Shown here: in pieces, positions 19,180-55,149 of the stretch
Position numbering within the stretch: position 1 is the stretch's first letter
Layout of the letters: each line of letters opens with the position of its first letter
Source of the DNA: Burkholderiales bacterium
Lineage (GTDB): Bacteria > Pseudomonadota > Gammaproteobacteria > Burkholderiales > Burkholderiaceae_C
Assembly: GCA_016191995.1 (NCBI GenBank)
Contig: JACPVA010000186.1
Span: forward strand, 57,670-121,669
Length of the DNA stretch: 64,000 bases
Direction of reading: 5' to 3'
Notes under the pieces: generated by a model
Seen by the model: the letters and a program-made list of their open reading frames with translations, nothing else
Told to the model about the DNA's origin: nothing
Database searches by the model: none
Made by a program: the position numbers and the translations under genes

Positions 19180-19827
19180 TCACGCGGCCCTCCCGATGCG
19201 CTTGATCGCCAGGCCGGCGTCGGCCGCCGGGACAGCCTGGGAGATCGCTGTCTTCGCGGAGCTGGTCCCGAGCTGCTCGACCTGCTGCGCGCGCTGCGAG
19301 TCGCCGATCAGCGATGGCTGCGCCGTGCCATGCCCGCGCAGCGCGTTCGTCGCCTCGTACTCGCCTGGCAGCCGCGCCGGGTATGGGTGATCCGGGCGCA
19401 GCGAGTACGCCCGGTGCAGGTCGGTGAAGCGCTTTTGCGTGAACGGCAGCTCGTCGGTCTCGGAGCGGCAGATCGCCGGCCATCCGCCCATGTCGTTGAT
19501 CGCGGCGTGGATCGCCCCGTCGTCGAAGACGACCGACTGGTACGCGCCGACGCGCTGCATCGCGTCGAGCACCTTGCCCCAGGCGACCAGGCTGCGGTCG
19601 GCCTGCGTGCCGACGATGCGCTTGATGAGGTCGGCCGGCTTGGGCATGAACTGCCCGCCGTCAGGGTCCTCGACCACCGCGCGGAATGCACGCTCGACCT
19701 GCTCGATGTCGAAGCGCTCCAGCGCCGCCCACCACAGCGACATCGCGCCCTCGCTGATCGTGCGGCCGTACAGCTCGGAGCAGGCGCTCAGCGCCACGCT
19801 GAACCTGTCGAAATCCTCAGTCCGCAT
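19180..19827 (-). CDS. DUF6475-like replication accessory protein (helicase loader/inhibitor-like)
   Basis: FMPKPADLIK...AWGKV...VVFDDGAIHAAINDMGGW; follows initiator. Confidence 0.75.
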   Translation of the reverse strand: MRTEDFDRFSVALSACSELYGRTISEGAMSLWWAALERFDIEQVERAFRAVVEDPDGGQFMPKPADLIKRIVGTQADRSLVAWGKVLDAMQRVGAYQSVVFDDGAIHAAINDMGGWPAICRSETDELPFTQKRFTDLHRAYSLRPDHPYPARLPGEYEATNALRGHGTAQPSLIGDSQRAQQVEQLGTSSAKTAISQAVPAADAGLAIKRIGRAA

Positions 19828-20776
19828 TCGCTTCCCCTTGCCGTTCGAGCAGCCGCGCCTTGAGCGCCTTGGCGTTGAGCATCGTCTGCATCCCGTGCGG
19901 GCTCATCGCCGTGACGGCGTGGTGCCCGCCGCCGTTGGTCGGGGTGGCGTCCGGCTTCAGCGGGAACAGCCCGGCCCACGACCGGAACGTGCTCTGCCGC
20001 AGCACCTCGGTCGGGTCGTGCCCGGCATCCCGCAGTCGGGCCAGCTCGGCGACCGCCAGGCGCCGGGCGGCAGGCGTCAGCGGCTTGCGGATGGCCCGTC
20101 GCATGCCCTCGAAGCCCTCCCAGGCCGTCGCGTCGACCCAAGGCGGCAGGGGGTCGGGGGCGGGGTCGGGTCGCGCGCGCCTGCGCGCGGGGGGTTCGGG
20201 GGGTATCCCCCCGTTCTCTTTGTATTCTCTGGTTCCGGTTCCGGTTCCGGTTCCGGTTCCGGTGGCGTCGCGTCCGGGGTCAGTCCCCGTCTCGGTTGGC
20301 GTCGCGTCCGGGGTCGCGTCCGGGGTCCGTCCCGCGGTTGTCCCGAGGTTGTCCCGCGGGACATTTGCGGCAAGCTGCGCCCGCTCGGCTTCCATCCGCT
20401 CGCGGTACGCGGCCTTGCGCTCGGACTCCCGGCGCTTGGTGTCGATCATTTCTACCACGCGTTCGGCGATCGTCGCGTGGTAGAGCCGGCCGTCGTCGGC
20501 CTCGGCCCAGCCGCGCATCAGTACCGGCCGCGCCTTGGCAAAGGCCTTGGGCGCCATGCCGATGCGCGCCGCGATCAGCGCATCGTCGCTCGGCAACGAG
20601 CCGCACGGCACCTGTTCCCATGCCGTCGCCCACAGCAACAGCAACCACGGCCGGAGCTCTGGCGTTGCCAGCGCCCATGTGTCCGACTGCCGCACGCGTT
20701 CCATGTCCAGCTCGAACCGCCACCCCTTCGCCCGCGTGTCCGCGGCGTACGGCGCCGCCTTCAGGTCGCTTGTCAT
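19817..20776 (-). CDS. Phage replication initiator (YdaU/DUF1376-like)
   Basis: LLLWATAWEQVPCGSLPSDDALIAAR...GRLYHATIAE; TGTGTG linker; C-terminal WEGFEGMRRAIRKPLT. Confidence 0.8.
   Translation of the reverse strand: MTSDLKAAPYAADTRAKGWRFELDMERVRQSDTWALATPELRPWLLLLWATAWEQVPCGSLPSDDALIAARIGMAPKAFAKARPVLMRGWAEADDGRLYHATIAERVVEMIDTKRRESERKAAYRERMEAERAQLAANVPRDNLGTTAGRTPDATPDATPTETGTDPGRDATGTGTGTGTGTREYKENGGIPPEPPARRRARPDPAPDPLPPWVDATAWEGFEGMRRAIRKPLTPAARRLAVAELARLRDAGHDPTEVLRQSTFRSWAGLFPLKPDATPTNGGGHHAVTAMSPHGMQTMLNAKALKARLLERQGEANAD
20231..20360. repeat. Iteron-like repeats within the initiator gene (probable origin)
   Basis: (GGTTCC)x5 at 20231-20260; GGCGTCGCGTCCGGGGT at 20264 and 20298, partial at 20313; GTCCCG x3. 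Confidence 0.6.
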
Positions 20777-24020: not shown

Positions 24021-24062
24021 TAGGCGGCGCCTATTGACAGTGATTAGGTGCCGCCTTATGCT
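24021..24062 (+). promoter_or_regulatory. PL-like early promoter with two operators
   Basis: TTGACA(24034-39)-N17-TATGCT(24057-62); operators TAGGCGGCGCCTA (24021-33) and TAGGTGCCGCCTT (24045-57). Confidence 0.85.
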
Positions 24063-24118: not shown

Positions 24119-24385
24119 ATGCACATCATCCGCACCTACTCCGCCGGCGTGCATGTCGGCACACTCAAGCGGCGCGAGGGCCGCGAGGTCGAGCTGACGG
24201 ACGCTAGCCGCATCTGGCGTTGGCGCGGCGCCAACACGTTGCACGAGCTGGCCCTGCACGGGCCGCAACAAAACTGGACGCGCATCAGCGAGCGCGTACC
24301 GTCGATCGTCCTGACCGAGGCGATCGAGATCATCCCTGTGGCCGACGAGGCCCGCGACGCCTTCGCGCCGCGGTGGGCGAAGTGA
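24119..24385 (+). CDS. DUF6948-like phage protein
   Basis: IIRTYSAGVHVGTL...VELTDASRIWRWRGANTLHELALHG...VLTEAIEIIP. Confidence 0.75.
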   Translation: MHIIRTYSAGVHVGTLKRREGREVELTDASRIWRWRGANTLHELALHGPQQNWTRISERVPSIVLTEAIEIIPVADEARDAFAPRWAK

Positions 24386-24732
24386 ACGGCGACGGCTCCG
24401 GCTCCGGCCACGGCTCCGGCTCCGGCTCCGGCTCCGGCTACGGCTACGGCGAAGGCTACGGCGACGGCTACGGCTCCGGCGACGGCTCCGGCTCCGGCTC
24501 CGGCTACGGCTCCGGCGACGGCTCCGGCTACGGCTACGGCTTCGGCTCCGGCTCCGGCTCCGGCTCCGGCGACGGCTCCGGCTCCGGCTCCGGCTACGGC
24601 GACGGCGACGGCTTCGGCTACGGCTCCGGCTCCGGCTCCGGCGACGGCGACGGCTCCGGCTCCGGCTCCGGCTACGGCTCCGGCTCCGGCGACGGCTACG
24701 GCGACGGCTACGGCGACGGCGACGGCACATGA
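24382..24732 (+). CDS. Gly-X repeat protein (GSGSGYGDG)n
   Basis: 116 aa, Gly at nearly every second residue with S/D/Y between; GTGA overlap upstream, ATGA overlap downstream. Confidence 0.7.
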   Translation: MNGDGSGSGHGSGSGSGSGYGYGEGYGDGYGSGDGSGSGSGYGSGDGSGYGYGFGSGSGSGSGDGSGSGSGYGDGDGFGYGSGSGSGDGDGSGSGSGYGSGSGDGYGDGYGDGDGT

Positions 24733-25802: not shown

Positions 25803-26663
25803 ATGAACACCCTCGCCACCGTCGAGCGCGCCGAGGTCGCCGACCCCGCCGCCCTCGGCAACCCTTCGGCCTTCCTGTTCGACGCGCAGCGCATGCACGC
25901 GCTGATGCAGTTCGCCGACATGATGTCGCAGGCTGTCGTGACCGTGCCCAAGCACCTGCACAACAAGCCCGCCGACTGCCTGGCCCTGACGCTGCAGGCC
26001 ATGCGCTGGGGCATGGACCCCTACGTGGTGGCCGGCAAGACGCACGTCGTCAACGGCAACCTGGGCTACGAGGCGCAGCTCGTGGTGGCGGTGCTCAAGA
26101 ACTCCGGCGCGGTGAAGGGCCGGCCGCACTACGAATACCGCGGCGACGGCCAGGCGCTGGAATGCCGCGCGGGCTTCGTGCCGGCCGGCGAGGACGCCAT
26201 CGTCTGGACCGAATGGCTTGGCATCGGATCGATCACCACCAAGAACTCGCCCCTGTGGAAGGTCAACCCGAAGCAGCAGTTCGGCTACCTGCAGGCGCGC
26301 AACTGGGCGCGGCTGTACGCGCCCGACGCGCTGCTCGGCGTCTACACCGACGACGAGCTGCAGGTGATGCCGTCCCCGCCCGAGAAGCACATGGGCGCGG
26401 CCGAAGTCGTCCGGCCTGCCCTGCCGGACTACGCGCAGGCCGACTTCGAGAAGAACATGCCTGCGTGGGCCCGGTTGGTGGCCGGCGGCAAGAAGTCCCC
26501 CGGCGAGCTGCTCGCCATGCTGTCCACCAAGGCCACCTTCAGCGAGGAGCAGAAAGCCCGCATCCTGTCGCTGAAGAAGGCGGCGCCGGAGCCGGCCCCT
26601 GTGGCGCCGCCGGTCGTCGACCCGTTCGTCGCCGAAATGGACGCGGCCGAGGAGGAGCTGTGA
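25803..26663 (+). CDS. recT: RecT-family single-strand annealing protein
   Basis: VPKHL..KPADCLA...AMRWGMDPYVVAGKTHVVNGNLGYEAQL...WKVNPKQQ...ARNWARLYAPDALLGVYTDDE. Confidence 0.88.
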   Translation: MNTLATVERAEVADPAALGNPSAFLFDAQRMHALMQFADMMSQAVVTVPKHLHNKPADCLALTLQAMRWGMDPYVVAGKTHVVNGNLGYEAQLVVAVLKNSGAVKGRPHYEYRGDGQALECRAGFVPAGEDAIVWTEWLGIGSITTKNSPLWKVNPKQQFGYLQARNWARLYAPDALLGVYTDDELQVMPSPPEKHMGAAEVVRPALPDYAQADFEKNMPAWARLVAGGKKSPGELLAMLSTKATFSEEQKARILSLKKAAPEPAPVAPPVVDPFVAEMDAAEEEL

Positions 26664-28432
26664 TGCGCATCCACGACTTGATCCAGGGCTCCCCCGAGTG
26701 GGCGGCGTACCGGGCCGGCCACTTCAACGCCAGCGACGCGCCGGCCATGCTGGGCGTGAGCCCGTACAAGAGCCGCGCCCAGCTGCTGCGCGAGCTGCAC
26801 ACCGGCGTCGCCGCCGAGATCGATACCGCGACGCACATGCGGTTCGCCAACGGACATCGCGCCGAGGCCCTGGCCCGCCCGCTGGCCGAGGAGTTCATCG
26901 GCGCCGAGCTGTACCCAGTGGTCGGCAGCGACGGCCGGTTGTCGGCCAGCTTCGACGGCCTGACGCTCGACGAGATCACGTGCTTCGAGCACAAGGCGCT
27001 CAACGACGAGCTGCGCGCGTCCTTCCGCGCGATTGCCGACGGCGCCGATGCGCAGCAGGCCTTGCCGCTGCATCACCGCGCGCAGATGGAACAGCAGCTG
27101 CTCGTCAGCGGTGCCGAGCGCGTGCTGTTCATGACCAGCGCCTGGACGCCGGATGACGATCTGATCGAGGAAATGCACTGCTGGTACTACCCCGACGCCA
27201 CGCTGCGCCGGCAGATCCTCGACGGCTGGGCGCAGTTCGAGCGCGACCTGGCCGCCTACGTGCTGCCGGACGCCGCGCCGGCCGCGCCTGTCGGCACGGC
27301 CCCGGAGACGCTGCCGGCGCTGCGCATCGAGGTCACCGGCGCCGTCACGGCCAGCAACCTGGCAGAGTTCAAGGCCACTGCGCTGGGCGCCATCCGGGCC
27401 GTCAACCGCAAGTTGACGACCGACCAGGACTTCGCAGACGCCGAGAAGGCCGTGAAGTGGTGCGCCGAGGTCGAGTCGCGCCTGAAGGCCGCGAAGGAGC
27501 ACGCGCTGAGCCAGACGGCCGACATCGACGCGCTGTTCCGCGCGCTCGACGACATCGGAGCCGAGGCCCGCGCCGTGCGCCTGGACCTGGACAAGCTGGT
27601 GACCCGCCGCAAGACCGAGGTCAAGGAGGAGGCGGTGGTGCGGGCGCGGCGCGCTCTGGACGAGCACGTCGCGCGGCTGAACGCCGAGATCGCCCCGATG
27701 CGGCTGCCGGCCATGGCGGCAGACTTCGCGGGCTGCATCAAGGGCCTGAAGTCGGTGGCCAGCATGCACGACAAGCTCGACGGCCTGCTGGCCGCCACGA
27801 AGATCGCTGCCGAAGCCGATGCGCGCGCCATCCGCGAAAACGTGGCGACGTTCCAGCGCGATGCCGCCGGCTTCGAGTTCCTGTTCGCCGACCTGGGCCA
27901 GGTGGTGCACAAGGCCGCCGACGACTTCGCGGCTCTGCTGCAGGCGCGCATCGCAACGCACAGGGCGGCCGAGGAAGCCCGGGCTCGCGCACGCGCGGAG
28001 GCCGAGGCCCGCGCGGCTGAGCAGCGCCGGCAGGCCGAGGAACTGGCCGCGGCGCGGGCCGAGTCGGCGCGGCTGGAAGCGCAGGCCGTGGAGAACCGAG
28101 CTCGGGCTGCCGCCGCCACTGTCGCGGCTCCTGCGCCTGTCGTCTCGCCGCCGGCCCATTCCGTCGCGGTTTCGGCGCCGATCGCTCCGCCGCCGGCCGC
28201 TCCAGTTCCGCCGGCGCACGCCGACGAGCGCGCCACGCTGGCGCTGGGCGTCATCTGCGGGCGCCTGTGCTTCACGGTCAGCGCTGCCTTCGTGACCAAC
28301 GTGCTGCGCGTCGAGCCATGCAAGGCGGGCGCGTCGCTGCTGTTCACCGAGCGCCAGTTCGAGCAGATCTGCGCGCAGCTGGTCAGCCACATCGGCGCGA
28401 TAGCCGAGCTGTACTCCGGGGAGCCAGCATGA
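26663..28432 (+). CDS. YqaJ/lambda-exonuclease-like protein with long coiled-coil C-terminus
   Basis: QGSPEW...ASDAPAMLGVSPYKSR...SASFDGL...FEHK...QMEQQL. Confidence 0.88.
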   Translation: MRIHDLIQGSPEWAAYRAGHFNASDAPAMLGVSPYKSRAQLLRELHTGVAAEIDTATHMRFANGHRAEALARPLAEEFIGAELYPVVGSDGRLSASFDGLTLDEITCFEHKALNDELRASFRAIADGADAQQALPLHHRAQMEQQLLVSGAERVLFMTSAWTPDDDLIEEMHCWYYPDATLRRQILDGWAQFERDLAAYVLPDAAPAAPVGTAPETLPALRIEVTGAVTASNLAEFKATALGAIRAVNRKLTTDQDFADAEKAVKWCAEVESRLKAAKEHALSQTADIDALFRALDDIGAEARAVRLDLDKLVTRRKTEVKEEAVVRARRALDEHVARLNAEIAPMRLPAMAADFAGCIKGLKSVASMHDKLDGLLAATKIAAEADARAIRENVATFQRDAAGFEFLFADLGQVVHKAADDFAALLQARIATHRAAEEARARARAEAEARAAEQRRQAEELAAARAESARLEAQAVENRARAAAATVAAPAPVVSPPAHSVAVSAPIAPPPAAPVPPAHADERATLALGVICGRLCFTVSAAFVTNVLRVEPCKAGASLLFTERQFEQICAQLVSHIGAIAELYSGEPA

Positions 28433-28473
28433 GCGGACAGGGGGCAAGGATGAGTGACCTGCTCACGGCGGCG

Positions 28474-28500
28474 CGCGTCCGCTCGAATGCGGGGTTAGAT
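28474..28500 (+). other. attC-like half site
   Basis: GCTCGAAT-GCGGG-GTTAGAT: L box, 5-bp spacer, GTTRRRY core; partner half not found upstream. Confidence 0.6.
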
Positions 28501-28528
28501 GGCGATTTTCAACGAGAGGAACCAATGC

Positions 28529-28903
28529 ATGAAGACGACGATTGAGTGGCTAGACCCCAAGATCAACCCGCCCCCGTTTGGGCAGCAGTTCATGGCGCTG
28601 CTGGGCGGACAGGGGAGCACCGATTGCCTGCGCACGACGACTCCCTATGTCAAGGTGGCGAACCTGGTGATGCGGCGCGACGGCCCGAACTGTGAAGACG
28701 ACAGCGACTACCGCGACTTCCTTGCGGACGAGCGAGGAGCCGCAGCATTTGACGACTACCAATTCCACTTGGTTGACTTCGACCAGTACACATACGGTGA
28801 TGACAGCGACTGTCTTGACTGGTATTCGGATTCGATTGTCGCGTGGGCTCCGATGCCTGACTTTTCGGAGCTGCTGGCGGAGACGCGGGCGGAAGCCATC
28901 TAA
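28529..28903 (+). CDS. Hypothetical acidic protein (gene-cassette-like)
   Basis: 124 aa MKTTIEWLDPK...IVAWAPMP; GAGAGG RBS; stop TAA lies inside ATCTAAC. Confidence 0.7.
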   Translation: MKTTIEWLDPKINPPPFGQQFMALLGGQGSTDCLRTTTPYVKVANLVMRRDGPNCEDDSDYRDFLADERGAAAFDDYQFHLVDFDQYTYGDDSDCLDWYSDSIVAWAPMPDFSELLAETRAEAI

Positions 28904-28965
28904 CGATTGAGCTGAACGGCCCGCGCGCTCGGGCCTTCAATACGCGGTCGAGCGAAGGGTTCGAC
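28898..28965 (+). other. Degenerate attC-like site
   Basis: ATCTAAC-GATTGA-GCTGAAC-[GGCCCG/CGGGCC hairpin]-GGTCGAGC-GAAGG-GTTCGAC. Confidence 0.6.
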
Positions 28966-28994
28966 ATCGGTGTGCCGACGGCGAAAGGACAGAC

Positions 28995-29351
28995 ATGCGA
29001 GACGCAGTGGACGAGGCAATCAGCGCTGGCGCGCTGGAGCAGGAAACGCCCGGCGAGCGCGCCGACCGCGAACGCTGGGAGCGCGCCATCAGCCGCAAGG
29101 AGAGCGCGCTGCGCGTGCTCGGGCCGCTTGGTTTCGATGACCTTCACGATGCCGAGCGCCCGGGCGCGATCGTTCACGGCGGCGCGGGCGTGGTGCTGGA
29201 CGCGGCGGTGATCAAGCCGCAAGACGTGGTGCCCGAGCTGCTGCGCATTGGGCGCGAGCGCGGCGTGGCGGCCCTGCGGCGCGACCTGAGGGCCGTCATT
29301 GGGTTGGTGGGCGTCGGCGGTTGCGAAATGGGCACGAATGCTGAGCTGTGA
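28995..29351 (+). CDS. Hypothetical protein (gene-cassette-like)
   Basis: 118 aa; AAGGA RBS; ends GTNAEL over an attC-left-half-like remnant. Confidence 0.6.
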   Translation: MRDAVDEAISAGALEQETPGERADRERWERAISRKESALRVLGPLGFDDLHDAERPGAIVHGGAGVVLDAAVIKPQDVVPELLRIGRERGVAALRRDLRAVIGLVGVGGCEMGTNAEL

Positions 29352-29775
29352 CTGCGACAACGACGACGCCGAATGGTGGTACGACGACACCTGTGGAGTC
29401 GAGCCACTGACGACGAAGCGCATGCGGCGCTGCTGCTCGTGCAGGGAACGCATCGCCGTGGGCGAGGACTGCAGACCGTTTCGGCGCTGGCGGACGGTGA
29501 ACGAATACAGCGACCTGCGCGTGCTGGTGAGCCTTTACGGCGATGGTGGCGAGCTGCCGCTGCCGACGTGGTATCTCTGCGACCGCTGCGCCGGGCTGTA
29601 TGAGTCGCTGGATGCGTGTGGATTCTGCGGTCTGCTCGGCCAGGACTTGCGCGAGACGTGCCGCGAGTACGCTCAGATGCAGCGCGCGGCGGGCGTTTTC
29701 CGTGGGCAGATGGCGCGGACGCCTAACGCAGAAGTCAGCGGCGCCGGAACGGCGTCCGCTGGACTGCCGGGTTAG
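29338..29775 (+). CDS. Cys-rich (zinc-binding) hypothetical protein reading through an attC site
   Basis: CCSC, CDRC, CGFC motifs; C-terminus PNAEVSGAGTASAGLPG is encoded by the attC. Confidence 0.7.
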   Translation: MLSCDCDNDDAEWWYDDTCGVEPLTTKRMRRCCSCRERIAVGEDCRPFRRWRTVNEYSDLRVLVSLYGDGGELPLPTWYLCDRCAGLYESLDACGFCGLLGQDLRETCREYAQMQRAAGVFRGQMARTPNAEVSGAGTASAGLPG

Positions 29776-29777
29776 CG
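29721..29777 (+). other. Complete 57-bp attC-like recombination site
   Basis: GCCTAAC-GCAGA-AGTCAGC-GGCGCCGGAACGGCGTCC-GCTGGACT-GCCGG-GTTAGCG; hairpin with an extra G in the L box and an extra T in the stem. Confidence 0.8.
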
Positions 29778-29798
29778 GTTTTTTACTTGGAGACGACA

Positions 29799-30677
29799 AT
29801 GAAATTTGCAAAGCAAACACCGGAAGCCACGGTGATGGACATTACCCCGGCGACCGCCAGAGAAATGCTTGAAACAAGCCCCGGCAATCGCCGGCTTCGC
29901 GGCTGGTATGTTGATCTGCTCGCGGCGGCAATGAAGCGCGGTGAATGGCGCGTGACAAGCCAGGGGATCGGGTTTGATCTTCTCGGGCGCTTGCGTGACG
30001 CTCACCACAGATTGCACGCCTGCATTCAGGCTGGTGTTTCGTTTCCGTCCGTGGTGGTTTTTGGAATGCGAACCGACGCCTACGAAGTGACAGACACAGG
30101 GATGGTGCGCACCTACGCCGACCGGTTGGACGAAGCTCCCGCCGTTGCCGAAGTGCTGCGGCTTGGCTGCCAGTACGCGCTGGGCTCGACAAAGCCCACC
30201 ATTGACCAGATGAAGCCAATCATCGACGCCGGCCTCGGAGATGCGGCGCGATCGTTGATCGAGTTTTGCGGCTCGAGGCGCAGGTATTTCGCGGCCGCTC
30301 CAATGAAGCTGGCAGCCTGCATCACGATCATGAACGGAGGGAATGCAGACTTCGTTTTGCAGCAATACCGCGCGATGTGTTCTCTTGATTTTGATGCCAT
30401 GTCAAAGTCAGCGCAGGCACTGGTTCGGCAGGTTGATAGCGGGAAAGCGCGCGCCCACGAAACTCGCGAAGCGCTGGCGAGAGGATTCCGGGTTTTCGAC
30501 AAAGACCGGCACGGCGTCAGCAAGATTCAGATCAGCGACGCCGATACAGATGCAGCTGTTGAACTGGTGCGTTCAGTGCTGCGCAACTCTGTCGGCGAAG
30601 AACCCGAAGCCCGCAAAAGTCGGCGTTGGCAGGACGGCGGCATGCGAGGCACGGGCATGACCGCTGACGCAATCTAG
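29799..30677 (+). CDS. ParB/sulfiredoxin-like N-terminal domain protein
   Basis: ITPATAREML...NRRL...AMKRGEWRVTSQGIGFD..G.L.DAHHRL.A; GGAG RBS. Confidence 0.65.
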   Translation: MKFAKQTPEATVMDITPATAREMLETSPGNRRLRGWYVDLLAAAMKRGEWRVTSQGIGFDLLGRLRDAHHRLHACIQAGVSFPSVVVFGMRTDAYEVTDTGMVRTYADRLDEAPAVAEVLRLGCQYALGSTKPTIDQMKPIIDAGLGDAARSLIEFCGSRRRYFAAAPMKLAACITIMNGGNADFVLQQYRAMCSLDFDAMSKSAQALVRQVDSGKARAHETREALARGFRVFDKDRHGVSKIQISDADTDAAVELVRSVLRNSVGEEPEARKSRRWQDGGMRGTGMTADAI

Positions 30678-30844
30678 GGCGCACCCGTGCGCCCATAACC
30701 GCCTCCGCCGCAGCACCCCCATGCTAACCGCCTCCCGCGCCGCCGCCCGCCGCCAGCTCGTGCAGCTGCTCGTCGAGCGCGCGCTGCGCGACCTGCGGGC
30801 GCACAATGCCAGCCCCGGCCAGGACGCCGACCCGGACCACGACG

Positions 30845-32467
<1,623 letters not shown>

Positions 32468-53286: not shown

Positions 53287-54210
53287 ATGCCGGTCAGCGT
53301 CAAGGTCAACGGGGTGGCCAACTCGCTGGTCCACAAGGGCAGCAACGGCGTGTCGGTGGCCACCATGCCCGATGTCTGCAAGACGCCGTCACCGGGCGGG
53401 CCGGTGCCCGTGCCCTACCCGAACATCTCGCAGTCGATCACCTTGGCCAAGGGCACGACCACCGTCAAGGCCGACCGCGGGATGATGATCGCCAACAAGG
53501 GCAGCGAGTTCTCGCTGTCCAACGGCGACAACGCGGGGGTGGCTGGGGGGGTCAAGTCATCCACGTTCATGAAGGAGAGTACGTGGATCCTGTACTCGTT
53601 CGACGTGAAGATGGACGGGAAGGGGGCTTGTCGGCTCTCCGACAAGAAGTTTCAGAATCATGAAAACGCGGTGGACTTGTCTGGAGAGATCCAGGCGATC
53701 GTGGCGACCCGAATGGCGCAGTTGCAGAAGTTCGCATGCGAGTGCAACGAAGAGATCAAGGACAAGAACGCCGACGGTACAGACAACGAGAGAAGTTGCC
53801 AGTTCCTGGGCGTGCTGAAGCACAAGTGCTGCGAGGCCAAGATCAGGGATCACACGAGGCAGGGGCCGAAGTCCGGCGTTAGAGGCGAAACTGGCTTTTC
53901 GGCCACCGGCACACCGCCGAAGACTCTGCAAGGTCCCAGGGGAACCACTGCGCCAGCAGATTCCAGCTGGCCTGACGCCATTATCACCGATGGGCAAGGG
54001 AAACCGCTGAAAGTCGTGGACTTCAAGTTCCAATGTCAACGCGGTGATTCAGACGATTGGCGGGAACAGGGTTGGACGAAGTACAGCAGTGCGAAAGGGT
54101 CCAAGTTTGCGTCACAGAAAGAAAAATACCAGGATCTGAGCAATCGGCTTGGCATCGATCCAGACGAACCATCGCAAGCTCCAGAGCTCATAACGAACGA
54201 GGATTGTTAG
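53287..54210 (+). CDS. PAAR-like (DUF4150) fused to a PD-(D/E)xK/VRR-Nuc-like nuclease effector
   Basis: PDVCKTPSPGGPVPVPYPNIS...SFDVKMDGKGACR; C-terminal WPD...VVDFKFQC...QKEKY. Confidence 0.8.
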   Translation: MPVSVKVNGVANSLVHKGSNGVSVATMPDVCKTPSPGGPVPVPYPNISQSITLAKGTTTVKADRGMMIANKGSEFSLSNGDNAGVAGGVKSSTFMKESTWILYSFDVKMDGKGACRLSDKKFQNHENAVDLSGEIQAIVATRMAQLQKFACECNEEIKDKNADGTDNERSCQFLGVLKHKCCEAKIRDHTRQGPKSGVRGETGFSATGTPPKTLQGPRGTTAPADSSWPDAIITDGQGKPLKVVDFKFQCQRGDSDDWREQGWTKYSSAKGSKFASQKEKYQDLSNRLGIDPDEPSQAPELITNEDC

Positions 54211-54213
54211 CAG

Positions 54214-55149
54214 ATGGACTTGTCTACCCTGGCCGTTTCTCACGCGGGAAAGCTCGTTGCGTTACCGACGATCAGTGTCTGTATCTATTTTTCGAAGGTG
54301 GCCCATGAGATCTCGCGGCCGATTGCCGAAGCTGTGGATGCCTACAGGGAGTTCGTCGGTCGTGAAAAGTTGAATCAGTATTCAGCCAACAGTGGAGATT
54401 GGCGCGCGCTAACCGCGAAGAAGCTTGAAAAGGACATGTCAAAGCTCCGTGACTATCCGAGTGACGTTCTCGCTTTCATCTTAGAGTACAACTCCGGCGA
54501 AGCATTGGTTCACCCAGCTCGTCCCGGTCCTTACGGCGTCTACATTTTTGTCAGGGACAAATTCCTGGAGTCAGCGCCGCTCACGACGAACTTCCTCAGA
54601 CTGGATTTCGACATCGGTTTCATCCTGTCAGACAACGTCGACGCCTTCGTCAGATGGTATACTGATGTCCTTGAGAATTTGCCGTTCCACTCCAGCCATG
54701 CGGGATTCGCCTATAAGCGCCTCGATTACTCGATGGACAAGGCCTCAGTAGGCGTAGACCGGAAGATCTCTCGATACTACGGGTTTGATCCAGGGTATGA
54801 GCCGCTCCGCGACAAGATGCTCGGACGGACTGGCAATCCGCAGTGGCTTAACGCCATAGACAATACTCTGGTCGAAAAACTCGGAGGCGCGGCTCGCATT
54901 TCAAAGGAACTGCCCGCGAGCAGGGTGACGAAGCTGAAGAACGGCTTACTGATTCAAGGGGCGCCCGTGCCTCCGCTTGGCGACATCAACCGTGGTGCGC
55001 CCGATATCGGATCGATTCCAGAGATTGCCAGACTGTTCAAGCCGCTCCGGACTCCGGTGTCAGCGTTCAGAGGGCCAGTTCGCGCACAGGAGTGGCTGGC
55101 CCGGTACGACGAGATGGACAATAGGCCTTGGAACGCATCGACGACATGA
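54214..55149 (+). CDS. DUF3396 (TsiV-like) immunity protein
   Basis: PFHSSHAGFAY...RYYGFD...WLNAIDNTLVEKLGG...LLIQGAPVPPLGD...IARLFKPLR. Confidence 0.85.
   Translation: MDLSTLAVSHAGKLVALPTISVCIYFSKVAHEISRPIAEAVDAYREFVGREKLNQYSANSGDWRALTAKKLEKDMSKLRDYPSDVLAFILEYNSGEALVHPARPGPYGVYIFVRDKFLESAPLTTNFLRLDFDIGFILSDNVDAFVRWYTDVLENLPFHSSHAGFAYKRLDYSMDKASVGVDRKISRYYGFDPGYEPLRDKMLGRTGNPQWLNAIDNTLVEKLGGAARISKELPASRVTKLKNGLLIQGAPVPPLGDINRGAPDIGSIPEIARLFKPLRTPVSAFRGPVRAQEWLARYDEMDNRPWNASTT

Follow-up and report, generated by a model that had tools for sequence, protein, structure and literature searches.

A prophage of a groundwater Burkholderiales genome (4.55 Mb) carries, between its RecE-like exonuclease gene and its serine integrase gene, a group of small genes bounded by inverted repeats. 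This raises the question of whether the repeats are integron attC sites and, if so, how they came to bound genes inside the early-left operon of a phage. A preliminary description, made from the letters of the DNA, had proposed an attC cassette array there. We analysed the locus in a 64-kb window, by which we mean the whole stretch of contig C174 under study. The host prophage is complete: genes were found for the major head, portal, TerL, TerS and minor tail proteins, an O-like replication protein (19.8-20.8 kb of the window), RecT, the exonuclease and the serine integrase, and the overlap of the serine integrase gene with a tRNA-Met gene marks the prophage end. The exonuclease stop codon forms the left edge of the array. 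Our main reading, which we hold with a probability of roughly 0.8, is that 28.4-30.7 kb of the early-left operon is a CALIN that received and exchanged its cassettes through IntI-type recombination and that is by now partly decayed. The features are collected in Table 1.

Table 1. Features of the attC array and of its prophage surroundings (positions in the window)
Feature	Position	Strand	Evidence or remark
RecT-like annealing protein gene	25803..26663	+	Pfam RecT 4.9e-19, phrog_561 1.5e-74; early operon, upstream of array
RecE/YqaJ-like exonuclease gene	26663..28432	+	Pfam YqaJ 4.5e-10, phrog_7655 4e-183
Site 3, putative truncated attC	28422..28500	+	bottom strand on +; R1 restricted to this interval: 7 bits, local E 0.04
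orfA, 124 aa	28529..28903	+	between GTTAGAT and ATCTAAC; phage early-gene family
Site 2, degenerate attC	28898-28965	bottom strand on +	R1 32.9 bits, E 1e-5, full length
orfB, 118 aa	28995..29351	+	ORF list
orfC, 145 aa, Cys-rich	29338..29775	+	ORF overlapping site 1
Site 1, intact 57-nt attC	29721-29777	bottom strand on +	R1 44.8 bits, E 1.4e-8, full length, exact coordinates
phrog_5931 protein gene, 292 aa	29799..30677	+	phrog_5931 1.9e-30; cargo right of site 1
Approximate right array edge	30719..30728	+	TGCTAAC (30722-30728), rare CTAAC motif
Large serine recombinase gene (phage integrase)	30806..32434	+	Pfam Resolvase, Recombinase, Zn_ribbon_recom; phrog_95 5e-83
tRNA-Met	32391-32467	-	ARAGORN; overlapped by serine integrase gene

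An attC core was taken to consist of inverted boxes RYYYAAC ... GTTRRRY, with AAC and GTT invariant. A scanner combining regular expressions with a stem search proved too unspecific, since it returned 995 candidates from the whole genome, about 20 of them as good as site 1. The same scanner exposed the real attC families of the host, and a covariance model followed. This model, R1, was built from 27 attC sites adjoining TIGR02249 integrases of relatives and two host sites, none of it window sequence; it is a purpose-built model distinct from that of IntegronFinder, and its training sites had been chosen by a regular-expression and stem filter. In the training set 94% of the cells were paired, and both sides had changed in 6 of the 9 L-box pairs. 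When run on the 64-kb window, R1 returned sites 1 and 2 and no further match with E < 1. Over the whole genome only two of R1's own training sites outscored site 1, and site 2 was the fourth-best match. An Rfam search over 28-31 kb gave no significant match.

Site 1 reads GCCTAAC, GCAGA, AGT CAGCGG, CGCCGGAACGGCG, T, CCGCTG, G, ACT, GCCGG, GTTAGCG. Its R boxes are GCCTAAC and GTTAGCG and its L boxes AGTCAGCGG and CCGCTG-G-ACT; pairing extends to 9 of 9 L-box and 5 of 7 R-box positions, and both spacers are 5 nt long. The cores keep AAC and GTT, with the last two letters of GTTAGCG deviating from RRY. The extrahelical T (29755) and G (29762) both lie on the 3' arm on the + strand, and the single-stranded DNA fold reached -20.5 kcal/mol (z -2.8). 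In agreement with the preliminary description, which had recognised a complete 57-bp site here, the R1 match includes all L pairs and both extrahelical bases, and the strand with the bulged G and T is the coding strand, as had also been claimed. Site 1 is nearly colinear with the 57-nt attC sites of a chromosomal locus (L118), and its 5' half agrees with the C20 sites of the host at 16 of 19 positions, the 5-nt spacer being common to both.

The degenerate full site described earlier at site 2 turned out to be a real attC by its R1 score and degenerate by its pairing: between the boxes ATCTAAC and GTTCGAC the L box is partly decayed, with five L pairs broken, and the fold was no better than that of shuffled sequences. 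Its ends resemble real attC sites of the same genus (CTAACGaTTGAGCTGA... and ...TCGAGCGAAGGGTT). Site 3 has TGAGCGG / CCGCTCGAATG as L boxes and, as its 3' R box, GTTAGAT (28494-28500), the 5' R box being absent; its 3' half resembles a real attC (L127:14306-14383). CATGAGCGG (28427-28435) was rejected as an L box of this site, as it is kept in related phages that diverge after 28435/28436. It is probably part of the exonuclease gene end, and for this reason only the 3' half of site 3, 28474-28500, is secure. Support for a truncated attC at the half site proposed there is weak, coming from a low R1 score and, independently, from a sediment metagenome contig (X3, below) that is identical to the window from 28494 onwards. 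A further remnant, suspected near 29333-29350, was dismissed, the R1 bit scores being negative. The exactly complementary cores GTTAGAT (28494-28500) and ATCTAAC (28898-28904) do flank orfA as described. The motifs CTAAC/TTAAC occur 12 times in the 64 kb, 5 of them within 28494-30728. At the right end, TGCTAAC agrees at six of seven positions with CGCTAAC, the complement of the outer box GTTAGCG of site 1. It was not confirmed as the exact right crossover: in X3, the only comparable variant, homology on the integrase side begins at 30719, with an A>C change at 30726, so that the exact crossover is uncertain, and the edge given by this one variant lies about 8 nt off the predicted core (30719 vs 30727). 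Sites 1 and 2 are separated by 756 bp. The term CALIN denotes a cluster of two or more attC sites within 4 kb that has no intI close by; 28.4-30.7 kb, with two significant attC sites, a truncated third and no intI on the contig, is a CALIN. It is not a complete integron, as no IntI match was found in the window or elsewhere on contig C174.

Three cassettes are delimited by these sites when read on the minus (top) strand: about 29727-30727 with the phrog_5931 gene, 28904-29726 with orfB and orfC, and about 28436-28903 with orfA. Every cargo gene is encoded on the attC bottom strand; the genes run opposite to those of normal cassettes and in the same direction as the phage operon. Searches with Pfam at E up to 5 gave no match for orfA, orfB, orfC or the phrog_5931 protein, and orfA had no PHROG match either. 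Seven homologues of orfA (42-90% identity) were found in phage early regions, within attC arrays at L139-L142 and outside arrays at L143-L148. For orfB no tblastn match was obtained in any locus fetched; its GC3 is 0.84 on the + strand vs 0.77 for the best minus-strand ORF. The last ~17 codons and the stop codon of orfC are encoded by site 1, and its one homologue, which in a Gallionella MAG contig (L045) immediately follows the exonuclease gene, aligns to residues 2-114 only, stopping short of the attC. The phrog_5931 protein has one homologue, in L016, and by eye a ParB/Srx-like DxHHR motif. Neither 20 sampled chromosomal arrays of relatives nor the rest of the host genome contained a cargo homologue; across these and the loci fetched, cargo homologues occur in phage contexts only. 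The cargo had been called AT-richer than the phage backbone. This was borne out in part: the orfA stretch has 58-61% GC, the phrog_5931 stretch 56-66% and orfB/orfC 66-71%, against 67-80% in the flanking exonuclease and integrase genes.

We then compared natural variants of the array. The sediment metagenome contig X3 is identical to the window from 28494, the G of GTTAGAT, and differs before it; the preceding sequence, CGATCTATCCTTAATC, corresponds, in reverse complement, to part of a host attC. In the activated-sludge contig X5, 28979-29728 is present at 97% identity and the shared GCCTAACG is followed by two other attC sites, with the break at 29728/29729. The segment 29724-29774 alone, core to core, occurs in at least three sediment contigs (X3), with different flanks in each. 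Related phage contigs from the sediment runs X3/X4 and X7/X8 are homologous to the window up to 28435/28436 and then follow two different continuations. Breakpoints unrelated to the TAAC/GTTA cores would have spoken against cassette recombination; the X3 and X5 variants break at these cores. Because pieces 97-99% identical to the window are joined, in other samples, at cores to different attC sites, the variants imply that cassette exchange was recent in the lineage. Joints in X2/X3 with sides of 21-24 nt (e.g. 28075 to 30727) were set aside as likely GC-rich chance matches. In the source sample one assembled form was found, in contigs, which lose rare variants.

The absence of an integron integrase, part of the preliminary description, holds for contig C174, on which TIGR02249 had no match, but not for the genome: a full-length IntI, the only one in the genome, is encoded at C168:289-1233 (TIGR02249, 461 bits). 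The host IntI that had been envisaged as acting in trans is thus present; we assume that it is compatible with the phage sites. The host chromosomal integron consists of array fragments with toxin-antitoxin pairs and attC sites of a type related to site 1, and the other attC type of the host reached only 17-21 bits with R1. Of 151 genomes from the family to which the host belongs, 65 have an IntI gene by TIGR02249.

The same layout recurs, as comparison of contigs shows, in related and unrelated temperate phages. Downstream of the exonuclease gene, and all on its strand, attC matches were found in L009, L019, L055, L008, L068 and L165. The array of L009, a Burkholderiales MAG, is followed in order by IntI (55% identity to host IntI, 424 bits), a phage tyrosine integrase and host ccm genes. 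L139 and L140 carry 10 and 11 plus-strand attC sites with the called genes all on one strand, no RecT or exonuclease gene in the stretch fetched, and Acb2/Tad1 and methylase genes among the cargo. Burkholderiales-type phage contigs reach up to 13 sites. Altogether, viral array cargo matched 51 PHROG families and Pfam N6_N4_Mtase, DNA_methylase, Acb2_Tad1_hairpin and DUF551, so that known anti-defence genes (Acb2/Tad1, orphan methylases) are indeed carried by other phage arrays, and cassette content at the locus differs among relatives. The longest ORF, a crude proxy for gene orientation that was validated only at L139/L140 and for cargo with PHROG matches, lies on the bottom strand in 58 of 70 viral-array intervals vs 2 of 30 chromosomal cassettes (Fisher p = 3e-13); in the chromosomal arrays of relatives it is on the top strand in the other 28. 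A rough calculation predicted hundreds of chance matches in the 14-mer scan of IMG/VR, and therefore only model-confirmed loci were used, and the scan provides no prevalence estimate. Some of the 'viral' contigs in IMG/VR could be mislabelled chromosomal DNA.

The hairpins might instead be intergenic regulatory elements of the phage, intrinsic terminators or mRNA-stabilising stem-loops, that merely resemble attC. Site 1 is stable and is followed by a T6 run (29779-29784), a terminator consensus scan flagged 29761-29781 (one of 9 such sites in the region vs 3.9 expected), and attC sites are said, in work cited within PMC9892861, to act as weak terminators. However, the stem that closes site 1 next to the T run, CTAAC/GTTAG, is AT-rich and 1-3 nt away from it, which would make a poor terminator, and the attC model match covers bulge positions and spacer sequences. 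An IntI gene adjoins such an array in L009, and the variants break at G/TT. The idea of site 1 as a mere terminator was abandoned once it had been compared with real attC sites, and we regard regulatory hairpins as a very improbable account of the locus; a secondary terminator role of site 1 is possible. Nearly as improbable is that a fragment of the host chromosomal integron was taken up by aberrant prophage excision, a route described for Vibrio anguillarum phages and reported by Qi et al. 2023 (PMC9892861). The host does have such an integron, with toxin-antitoxin cassettes and a related attC type, and the resemblance of site 1 to the C20 sites, spacer included, would fit. Against this origin, the array is internal to the prophage, with the integrase gene separating it from the attachment tRNA, its cargo homologues are confined to phage contexts, its genes are oriented opposite to those of chromosomal arrays, and arrays occupy the same locus in several distinct phages.

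A rival with considerably more weight, though we still judge it somewhat less than probable, is that the array is a fossil, captured in an ancestral phage with its own IntI, as in L009, and now ordinary phage DNA on which no integrase acts. The broken L pairs of site 2, the missing crossover box of site 3, the lack of intI in cis and the single form in the source sample agree with it, and since orfC reads through site 1, this site is partly under coding constraint. Yet site 1 retains every structural feature, both extrahelical bases included, nearly identical pieces are elsewhere joined at cores to different attC sites, and the host carries an IntI gene. As one site is intact, one degenerate and one truncated, ongoing shuffling in this prophage is unproven, and its array, partly decayed, may be nearly frozen.

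Under the CALIN reading, cassettes would have been placed and exchanged through IntI-type recombination of folded bottom strands, with the crossover predicted at AA/C (G/TT on the other strand). Because the phage has no intI, only the host IntI, encoded on another contig, could act in this lysogen. A rightward fork from the region of the O-like gene, from which we deduce where the replication origin lies, would take the + strand as lagging-strand template, an orientation that raises cassette excision in Vibrio (Richard et al. 2024, PMC13108822). It is conceivable, though unlikely, that temperate phages of Burkholderiales, and then probably others, have a phage-specific integron system, in which attC-bounded early accessory and anti-defence genes on the recombinogenic bottom strand form a pool distinct from the host integron and turn over with replication and SOS. 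In such a system the bottom strands would serve the early operon as non-template strand and, at the same time, the fork leaving the phage origin as lagging-strand template. Turnover would start when the phage replicates or is induced and SOS-induced IntI is available, supplied either by the phage itself, L009 being the example, or by the host.

Integrons have been regarded chiefly as a means by which bacteria store and rearrange genes, and recent work shows that anti-phage defences are frequent among their cassettes. Should phages store counter-defence genes (Acb2/Tad1, orphan methylases, many small unknowns) as cassettes, both sides of the arms race would share the same recombination machinery; the reversed gene orientation would then offer a design rule for rapid turnover that can be put to the test, and phage attC arrays would flag new anti-defence candidates among small early genes, including orfA, orfB and orfC. 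Taken by itself, the window is a minor case, and its array has partly decayed.

CALINs and integrons in phages have already been described by Qi, Rajabal, Ghaly, Tetu & Gillings 2023 (Front Microbiol, PMC9892861), who surveyed 10,705 phage genomes and reported 17 CALINs, 3 complete integrons and one In0; most had 2-3 sites, and the arrays either had the bacterial orientation or contained divergent sites. In that study phage attC sites recombine with IntI1, and it is proposed that phages gain access to cassettes countering host defences. Our locus shares with those CALINs the integrase-less attC clusters in a phage genome, and orphan DNA methylases are cargo both there and in other phage arrays compared here. 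In contrast to that survey, the array lies in the early-left operon with all genes on the attC bottom strand, as read here from sequence, and the layout is repeated in many Burkholderiales-type phage contigs with more sites. The parts are thus of a known kind, and the inverted early-operon layout is a variant. With the sedentary chromosomal integrons of the family the array has in common the attC architecture and near-identical boxes (the 57-nt sites of L118 share the L boxes TCAGCGG / TCCGCTGGA), whereas those integrons possess intI, attI and top-strand cargo, and the phage array has no intI, phage-type cargo and the opposite orientation. A further likeness is the prophage integron of L009, which has the same order of RecT, exonuclease, array and phage integrase, the same attC polarity and bottom-strand cargo; unlike the window it keeps IntI at the array end, co-directional with the early operon, and its phage integrase is of the tyrosine rather than the serine type. 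In the window IntI was either lost or never present.

Small accessory genes in a fixed slot that vary between related phages also recall morons and hypervariable regions (lambda b, nin-like). Whereas morons usually lie between a promoter and a terminator of their own and are moved by illegitimate or homologous recombination, the units in the window are bounded by attC sites and have natural breakpoints at IntI crossover cores. Expression of the cargo would come from read-through of the early operon. The preliminary description had also invoked RecT/YqaJ as a source of single strand for recombination, which we mention as speculation, and PL as the cassette promoter, a role that co-orientation and one promoter-like match, at 24034-24062, would suggest.

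PHROG searches of the window identified a major head protein, a portal, large and small terminases and a minor tail protein, and the prophage is complete. The window spans C174:57670-121669 of the host draft genome, which comprises 4.55 Mb (72% GC, 199 contigs). Among the public metagenome runs, the whole stretch was present in only one, a groundwater metagenome, which is therefore presumably the source sample. The plus-strand early operon runs from a promoter-like site, through the RecT and exonuclease genes and four cargo genes, to a large serine recombinase gene that overlaps a tRNA-Met. This order and the tRNA overlap place the attC array inside the prophage, one gene from the integrase. 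After the DUF6948 gene at the operon head lies an ORF (24220-24732, plus strand) that consists over nearly its whole length of Gly-X repeats (GSGYGDG...); L055, a locus from a related phage, begins with a similar repeat ORF.

Features of the prophage early region, its cassette units and the host attC families
Feature	Position	Strand	Remark
O-like replication protein gene	19817-20776	-	PHROG search
Promoter-like site	24034-24062		head of plus-strand operon
DUF6948 gene		+	first in operon after promoter-like site
RecT gene	25803-26663	+	
RecE/YqaJ-like exonuclease gene	26663-28432	+	
orfA	28529-28903	+	small gene, function unassigned
orfB	28995-29351	+	small gene, function unassigned
orfC	29338-29775	+	small gene, function unassigned
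phrog_5931 protein gene	29799-30677	+	
Large serine recombinase gene	30806-32434	+	
tRNA-Met	32391-32467		overlapped by 3′ end of recombinase gene
Cassette unit 1	about 30727 to 29727	top (-)	
Cassette unit 2	29726 to 28904	top (-)	
Cassette unit 3	28903 to about 28436	top (-)	orfA
Host attC family	C20:329-396 and C20:1241-1308		contig end
Host 55-nt attC type	C48:26111, C103:34178, C121:2751		contig ends

The array is genuine, a set of integron cassettes carried within a prophage, and the preliminary description was correct on its main points. The NCBIfam integron integrase model TIGR02249 scored above its cut-off in 65 of 151 same-family genomes; DNA adjoining 20 of these integrase genes was fetched, and regular attC arrays were found beside them. 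A home-made covariance model, R1, was built from 27 sites of 57-78 nt in bottom-strand orientation (25 from seven relatives, 2 from host contig C20, the window being excluded). Under the structure that we assigned (7 R-box and 9 L-box pairs), 94% of the cells of this alignment paired, compared with 24-45% in slid-partner controls, and 6 of the 9 L-box pairs carried two-sided changes. Run with filters off on the 64-kb window, R1 gave two full-length plus-strand matches, one exactly at 29721-29777 (site 1; 44.8 bits, E = 1.4e-8), where a complete attC had been proposed, and one at 28898-28965 (site 2; 32.9 bits, E = 1e-5), previously taken for a degenerate full site; the best match in the window beyond these had E = 1.3. 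Nothing else in the genome outscored them apart from the two C20 training sites.

Site 1 has all the canonical features: both R boxes, 5-nt spacers, nine L pairs, a 5-bp terminal stem, and an extrahelical T (29755) and G (29762), both on the 3′ arm. It is nearly colinear with the 57-nt attCs of integron locus L118 and, as folded single-stranded DNA, was more stable than its shuffles (z = -2.8); site 2, 28474-28500 and 29333-29350 were no more stable than shuffled sequence. A T6 run directly follows site 1, from which the site was initially read as a terminator; this reading was dropped on comparison with real attCs. Site 2 has kept both ends, CTAACGaTTGAGCTGA and TCGAGCGAAGGGTT, which match a same-genus attC (L131:4677-4802), and its inner stem has decayed. 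The proposed half site at 28474-28500 reached only 7 bits when searched alone with R1, although a contig match from another metagenome begins at its GTTAGAT core (28494), and the supposed remnant at 29333-29350, with a score below zero, was discarded. The complementary cores described around orfA were recovered, the orfA unit opening with TTAGAT and its own site with ATCTAAC. CTAAC/TTAAC occurs 12 times in the window, 5 of them inside the 2.3-kb array. An Rfam search of the array region returned nothing.

The array had been reported to lack an integron integrase. This holds for the window's own contig, where TIGR02249 found no match, but not for the host genome, which encodes a full-length enzyme (C168:289-1233; 461 bits against a cut-off of 265). 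Host attC families, first located by a crude genome-wide pattern scan, adjoin toxin-antitoxin-like gene pairs, and such pairs beside attCs at contig ends are typical of a fragmented chromosomal integron. The 55-nt type scored only 17-21 bits with R1 because its bulge lies one pair further in. Integron fragments occupy C20:1-3300, C48:25500-26319, C103:34178-34232 and C121:2100-2810, where the assembly breaks at contig ends; they hold HigB/HigA-like and BrnT/BrnA-like pairs and attCs of two types. The host intI gene stands at the start of its contig (C168:1-1233), whose first 159 bp are repeated at C170:1-159, upstream of a thyA-like gene, with a 74-bp copy (92% identical) at C144:4278-4351, beside a low-GC DUF1697-like gene. 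This repeated element has two tandem ~30-nt direct repeats, and its copies stop matching at ...GACAACAC, right before GTTGAAC; its possible identities are an attI-like region and a small mobile repeat.

In L118, the plus strand carries intI, to the right of the array, and is also the strand whose 3′ arm has the bulges; in locus L129 both are reversed. This arrangement fixes the bulged strand as the bottom strand, in agreement with the literature. Of 30 cassettes from six chromosomal arrays of relatives, 28 had the longest ORF on the top strand; all three window intervals had it on the bottom strand. Seven homologues of orfA (42-90% identity), an orfC homologue directly 3′ of the exonuclease gene in locus L045, and the phrog_5931 match of the last cargo gene independently show that three of the four cargo genes are real on the plus strand. 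Since the polarity is also fixed, the earlier assignment of the coding strand to the bulged strand was right. orfC reads across the entire site 1 and stops at the TAG within GTTAGCG; the alignment with its sole homologue, in L045, covers residues 2-114, so the cassette junction may have generated the last ~30 residues as a by-product.

A comparison of cassette content across 80 fetched loci encoding exonuclease relatives revealed that the cargo differs between related phages, since orfA and orfB were absent from all 80, and orfC and the phrog_5931 gene were present in one each. At E values up to 1, R1 matched these loci 20 times, in every case on the strand of the exonuclease gene, with four attC sites in L009, eight in L019 (the array running to the contig end), four downstream in L055, one in L008, and one strong and one weak in L068. 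After the L009 array come, in order, an integron integrase (424 bits, 55% identity to the host's), a Gp37/Gp68-like gene, a tyrosine phage integrase and then the cytochrome c maturation genes of the host; this is a complete integron carried by a prophage, its intI pointing the same way as the early operon. The region (L009:12925-20813, Burkholderiales MAG JACRAZ010000017.1) has a PAPS-reductase-like first cassette and four attCs before IntI, all co-directional with that operon.

Two 37-kb phage contigs from JGI metagenome data, L139 and L140, were reached through homologues of orfA; both contain a P22 Cro-like gene, a superinfection-immunity gene, Lar and tail genes. They carry 10 and 11 plus-strand attC matches, respectively, with one weak minus-strand match in L140; roughly one attC follows each small early gene, and every called gene in the arrays is on the attC strand. 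The arrays (L139:3637-8188 and L140:4838-10174) lie within a P22-like early operon. Cassette products include an Acb2/Tad1 hairpin-domain protein, an N6_N4 methylase, a DHH phosphoesterase-like protein and an orfA homologue. When 80 IMG/VR loci picked by a 14-mer scan were searched with R1, 110 sites were found at E < 1e-3 in ~35 of the 80, with up to 13 per locus; one locus, L165, encodes RecT and a 76% identical exonuclease with three attC sites downstream. Across 21 viral or phage-like arrays (19 from IMG/VR plus L139 and L140), 58 intervals had their longest ORF on the bottom strand and 12 on the top strand, against 2 and 28 in the chromosomal arrays (Fisher p = 3e-13), longest-ORF orientation being a crude proxy and some IMG/VR contigs possibly non-viral. 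Many of the bottom-strand ORFs were confirmed as real phage genes by database matches: the set of 94 such ORFs matched 51 PHROG families, and Pfam matches included DNA methylases, Acb2/Tad1, DHH phosphoesterase and DUF551.

Near-identical pieces of the array were found on contigs of other public metagenomes. Sediment run X3, of which X4 appears to be a duplicate deposit, has a contig that agrees with the window, apart from one difference, from the G of GTTAGAT (28494) through orfA. Immediately preceding this match are 16 nt, CGATCTATCCTTAATC, identical to the reverse complement of host 55-nt attC positions 8-23, and therefore a different attC of opposite polarity abuts the same core. Here orfA lies between two attCs of opposite polarity, with the crossover points abutting it (TTAGAT ... 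ATCTAA), a geometry that would be expected of an IntI-invertible segment. The exonuclease gene end matches as far as 28435/28436 in sediment runs X3/X4 and X7/X8, past which X7/X8 show two distinct continuations, one common to X3/X4. At least three X3 contigs have 29724-29774 alone in common (TAAC to GTTA), both flanks differing each time. Activated-sludge run X5 has a 4.2-kb contig with a 97% match to 28979-29728; past the shared GCCTAACG, two contigs go on as TTCGAGCTAACCGGCC... and TGGAGGTGAGCCGG..., the starts of other bottom-strand attCs. Breakpoints unrelated to the TAAC/GTTA cores would have spoken against a cassette array; the X3 and X5 breaks lie at cores, the places at which IntI would be expected to cross over. 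The fit is looser at the right edge: the X3 match begins at 30719, which is 8 nt to the left of the crossover as predicted, and has A>C at 30726. No recombination event in the window's lysogen was seen in the metagenome contigs.

Beyond these observations of attC sites, polarity, gene orientation, recurrence and core breakpoints, we propose that IntI, here the host enzyme acting in trans, would exchange cassettes on folded bottom strands, and that the cargo would be expressed by read-through from the early promoter. Because the O-like replication gene lies to the left, a rightward fork would take the plus strand, which carries the bottom strands, as lagging-strand template. In Vibrio cholerae, this orientation raises cassette excision from <7e-5 to 3e-2 (Richard et al. 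2024, PMC13108822). From that increase and the presumed fork direction, we hypothesize that phage arrays sit in the high-turnover orientation with their genes still co-directional with the operon. L139 and L140 do not require a role for RecT and the exonuclease as a source of single-stranded DNA.

Phage-borne integron parts are already a known kind, since a screen of 10,705 phage genomes reported three complete integrons, one In0 element and 17 CALINs (attC clusters without an integron integrase), with orphan methylases among the cargo and five phage attCs that recombined with IntI1 (Qi et al. 2023, PMC9892861). The window array, two of whose three sites are damaged, is a small, partly decayed member of this kind. 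Its layout, in which genes occupy the bottom strand, is recurrent and apparently undescribed; our literature search found no description of the inverted early-operon layout. Well outside the integrase end of the prophage, a low-GC island (~40-55% GC, 53880-54900) contains 4 of the 12 CTAAC/TTAAC motifs in the window, together with an R1 match to the R box only (54188-54212, E = 1.3), without attC structure; it resembles a small secreted-toxin tail with a possible immunity gene after it.
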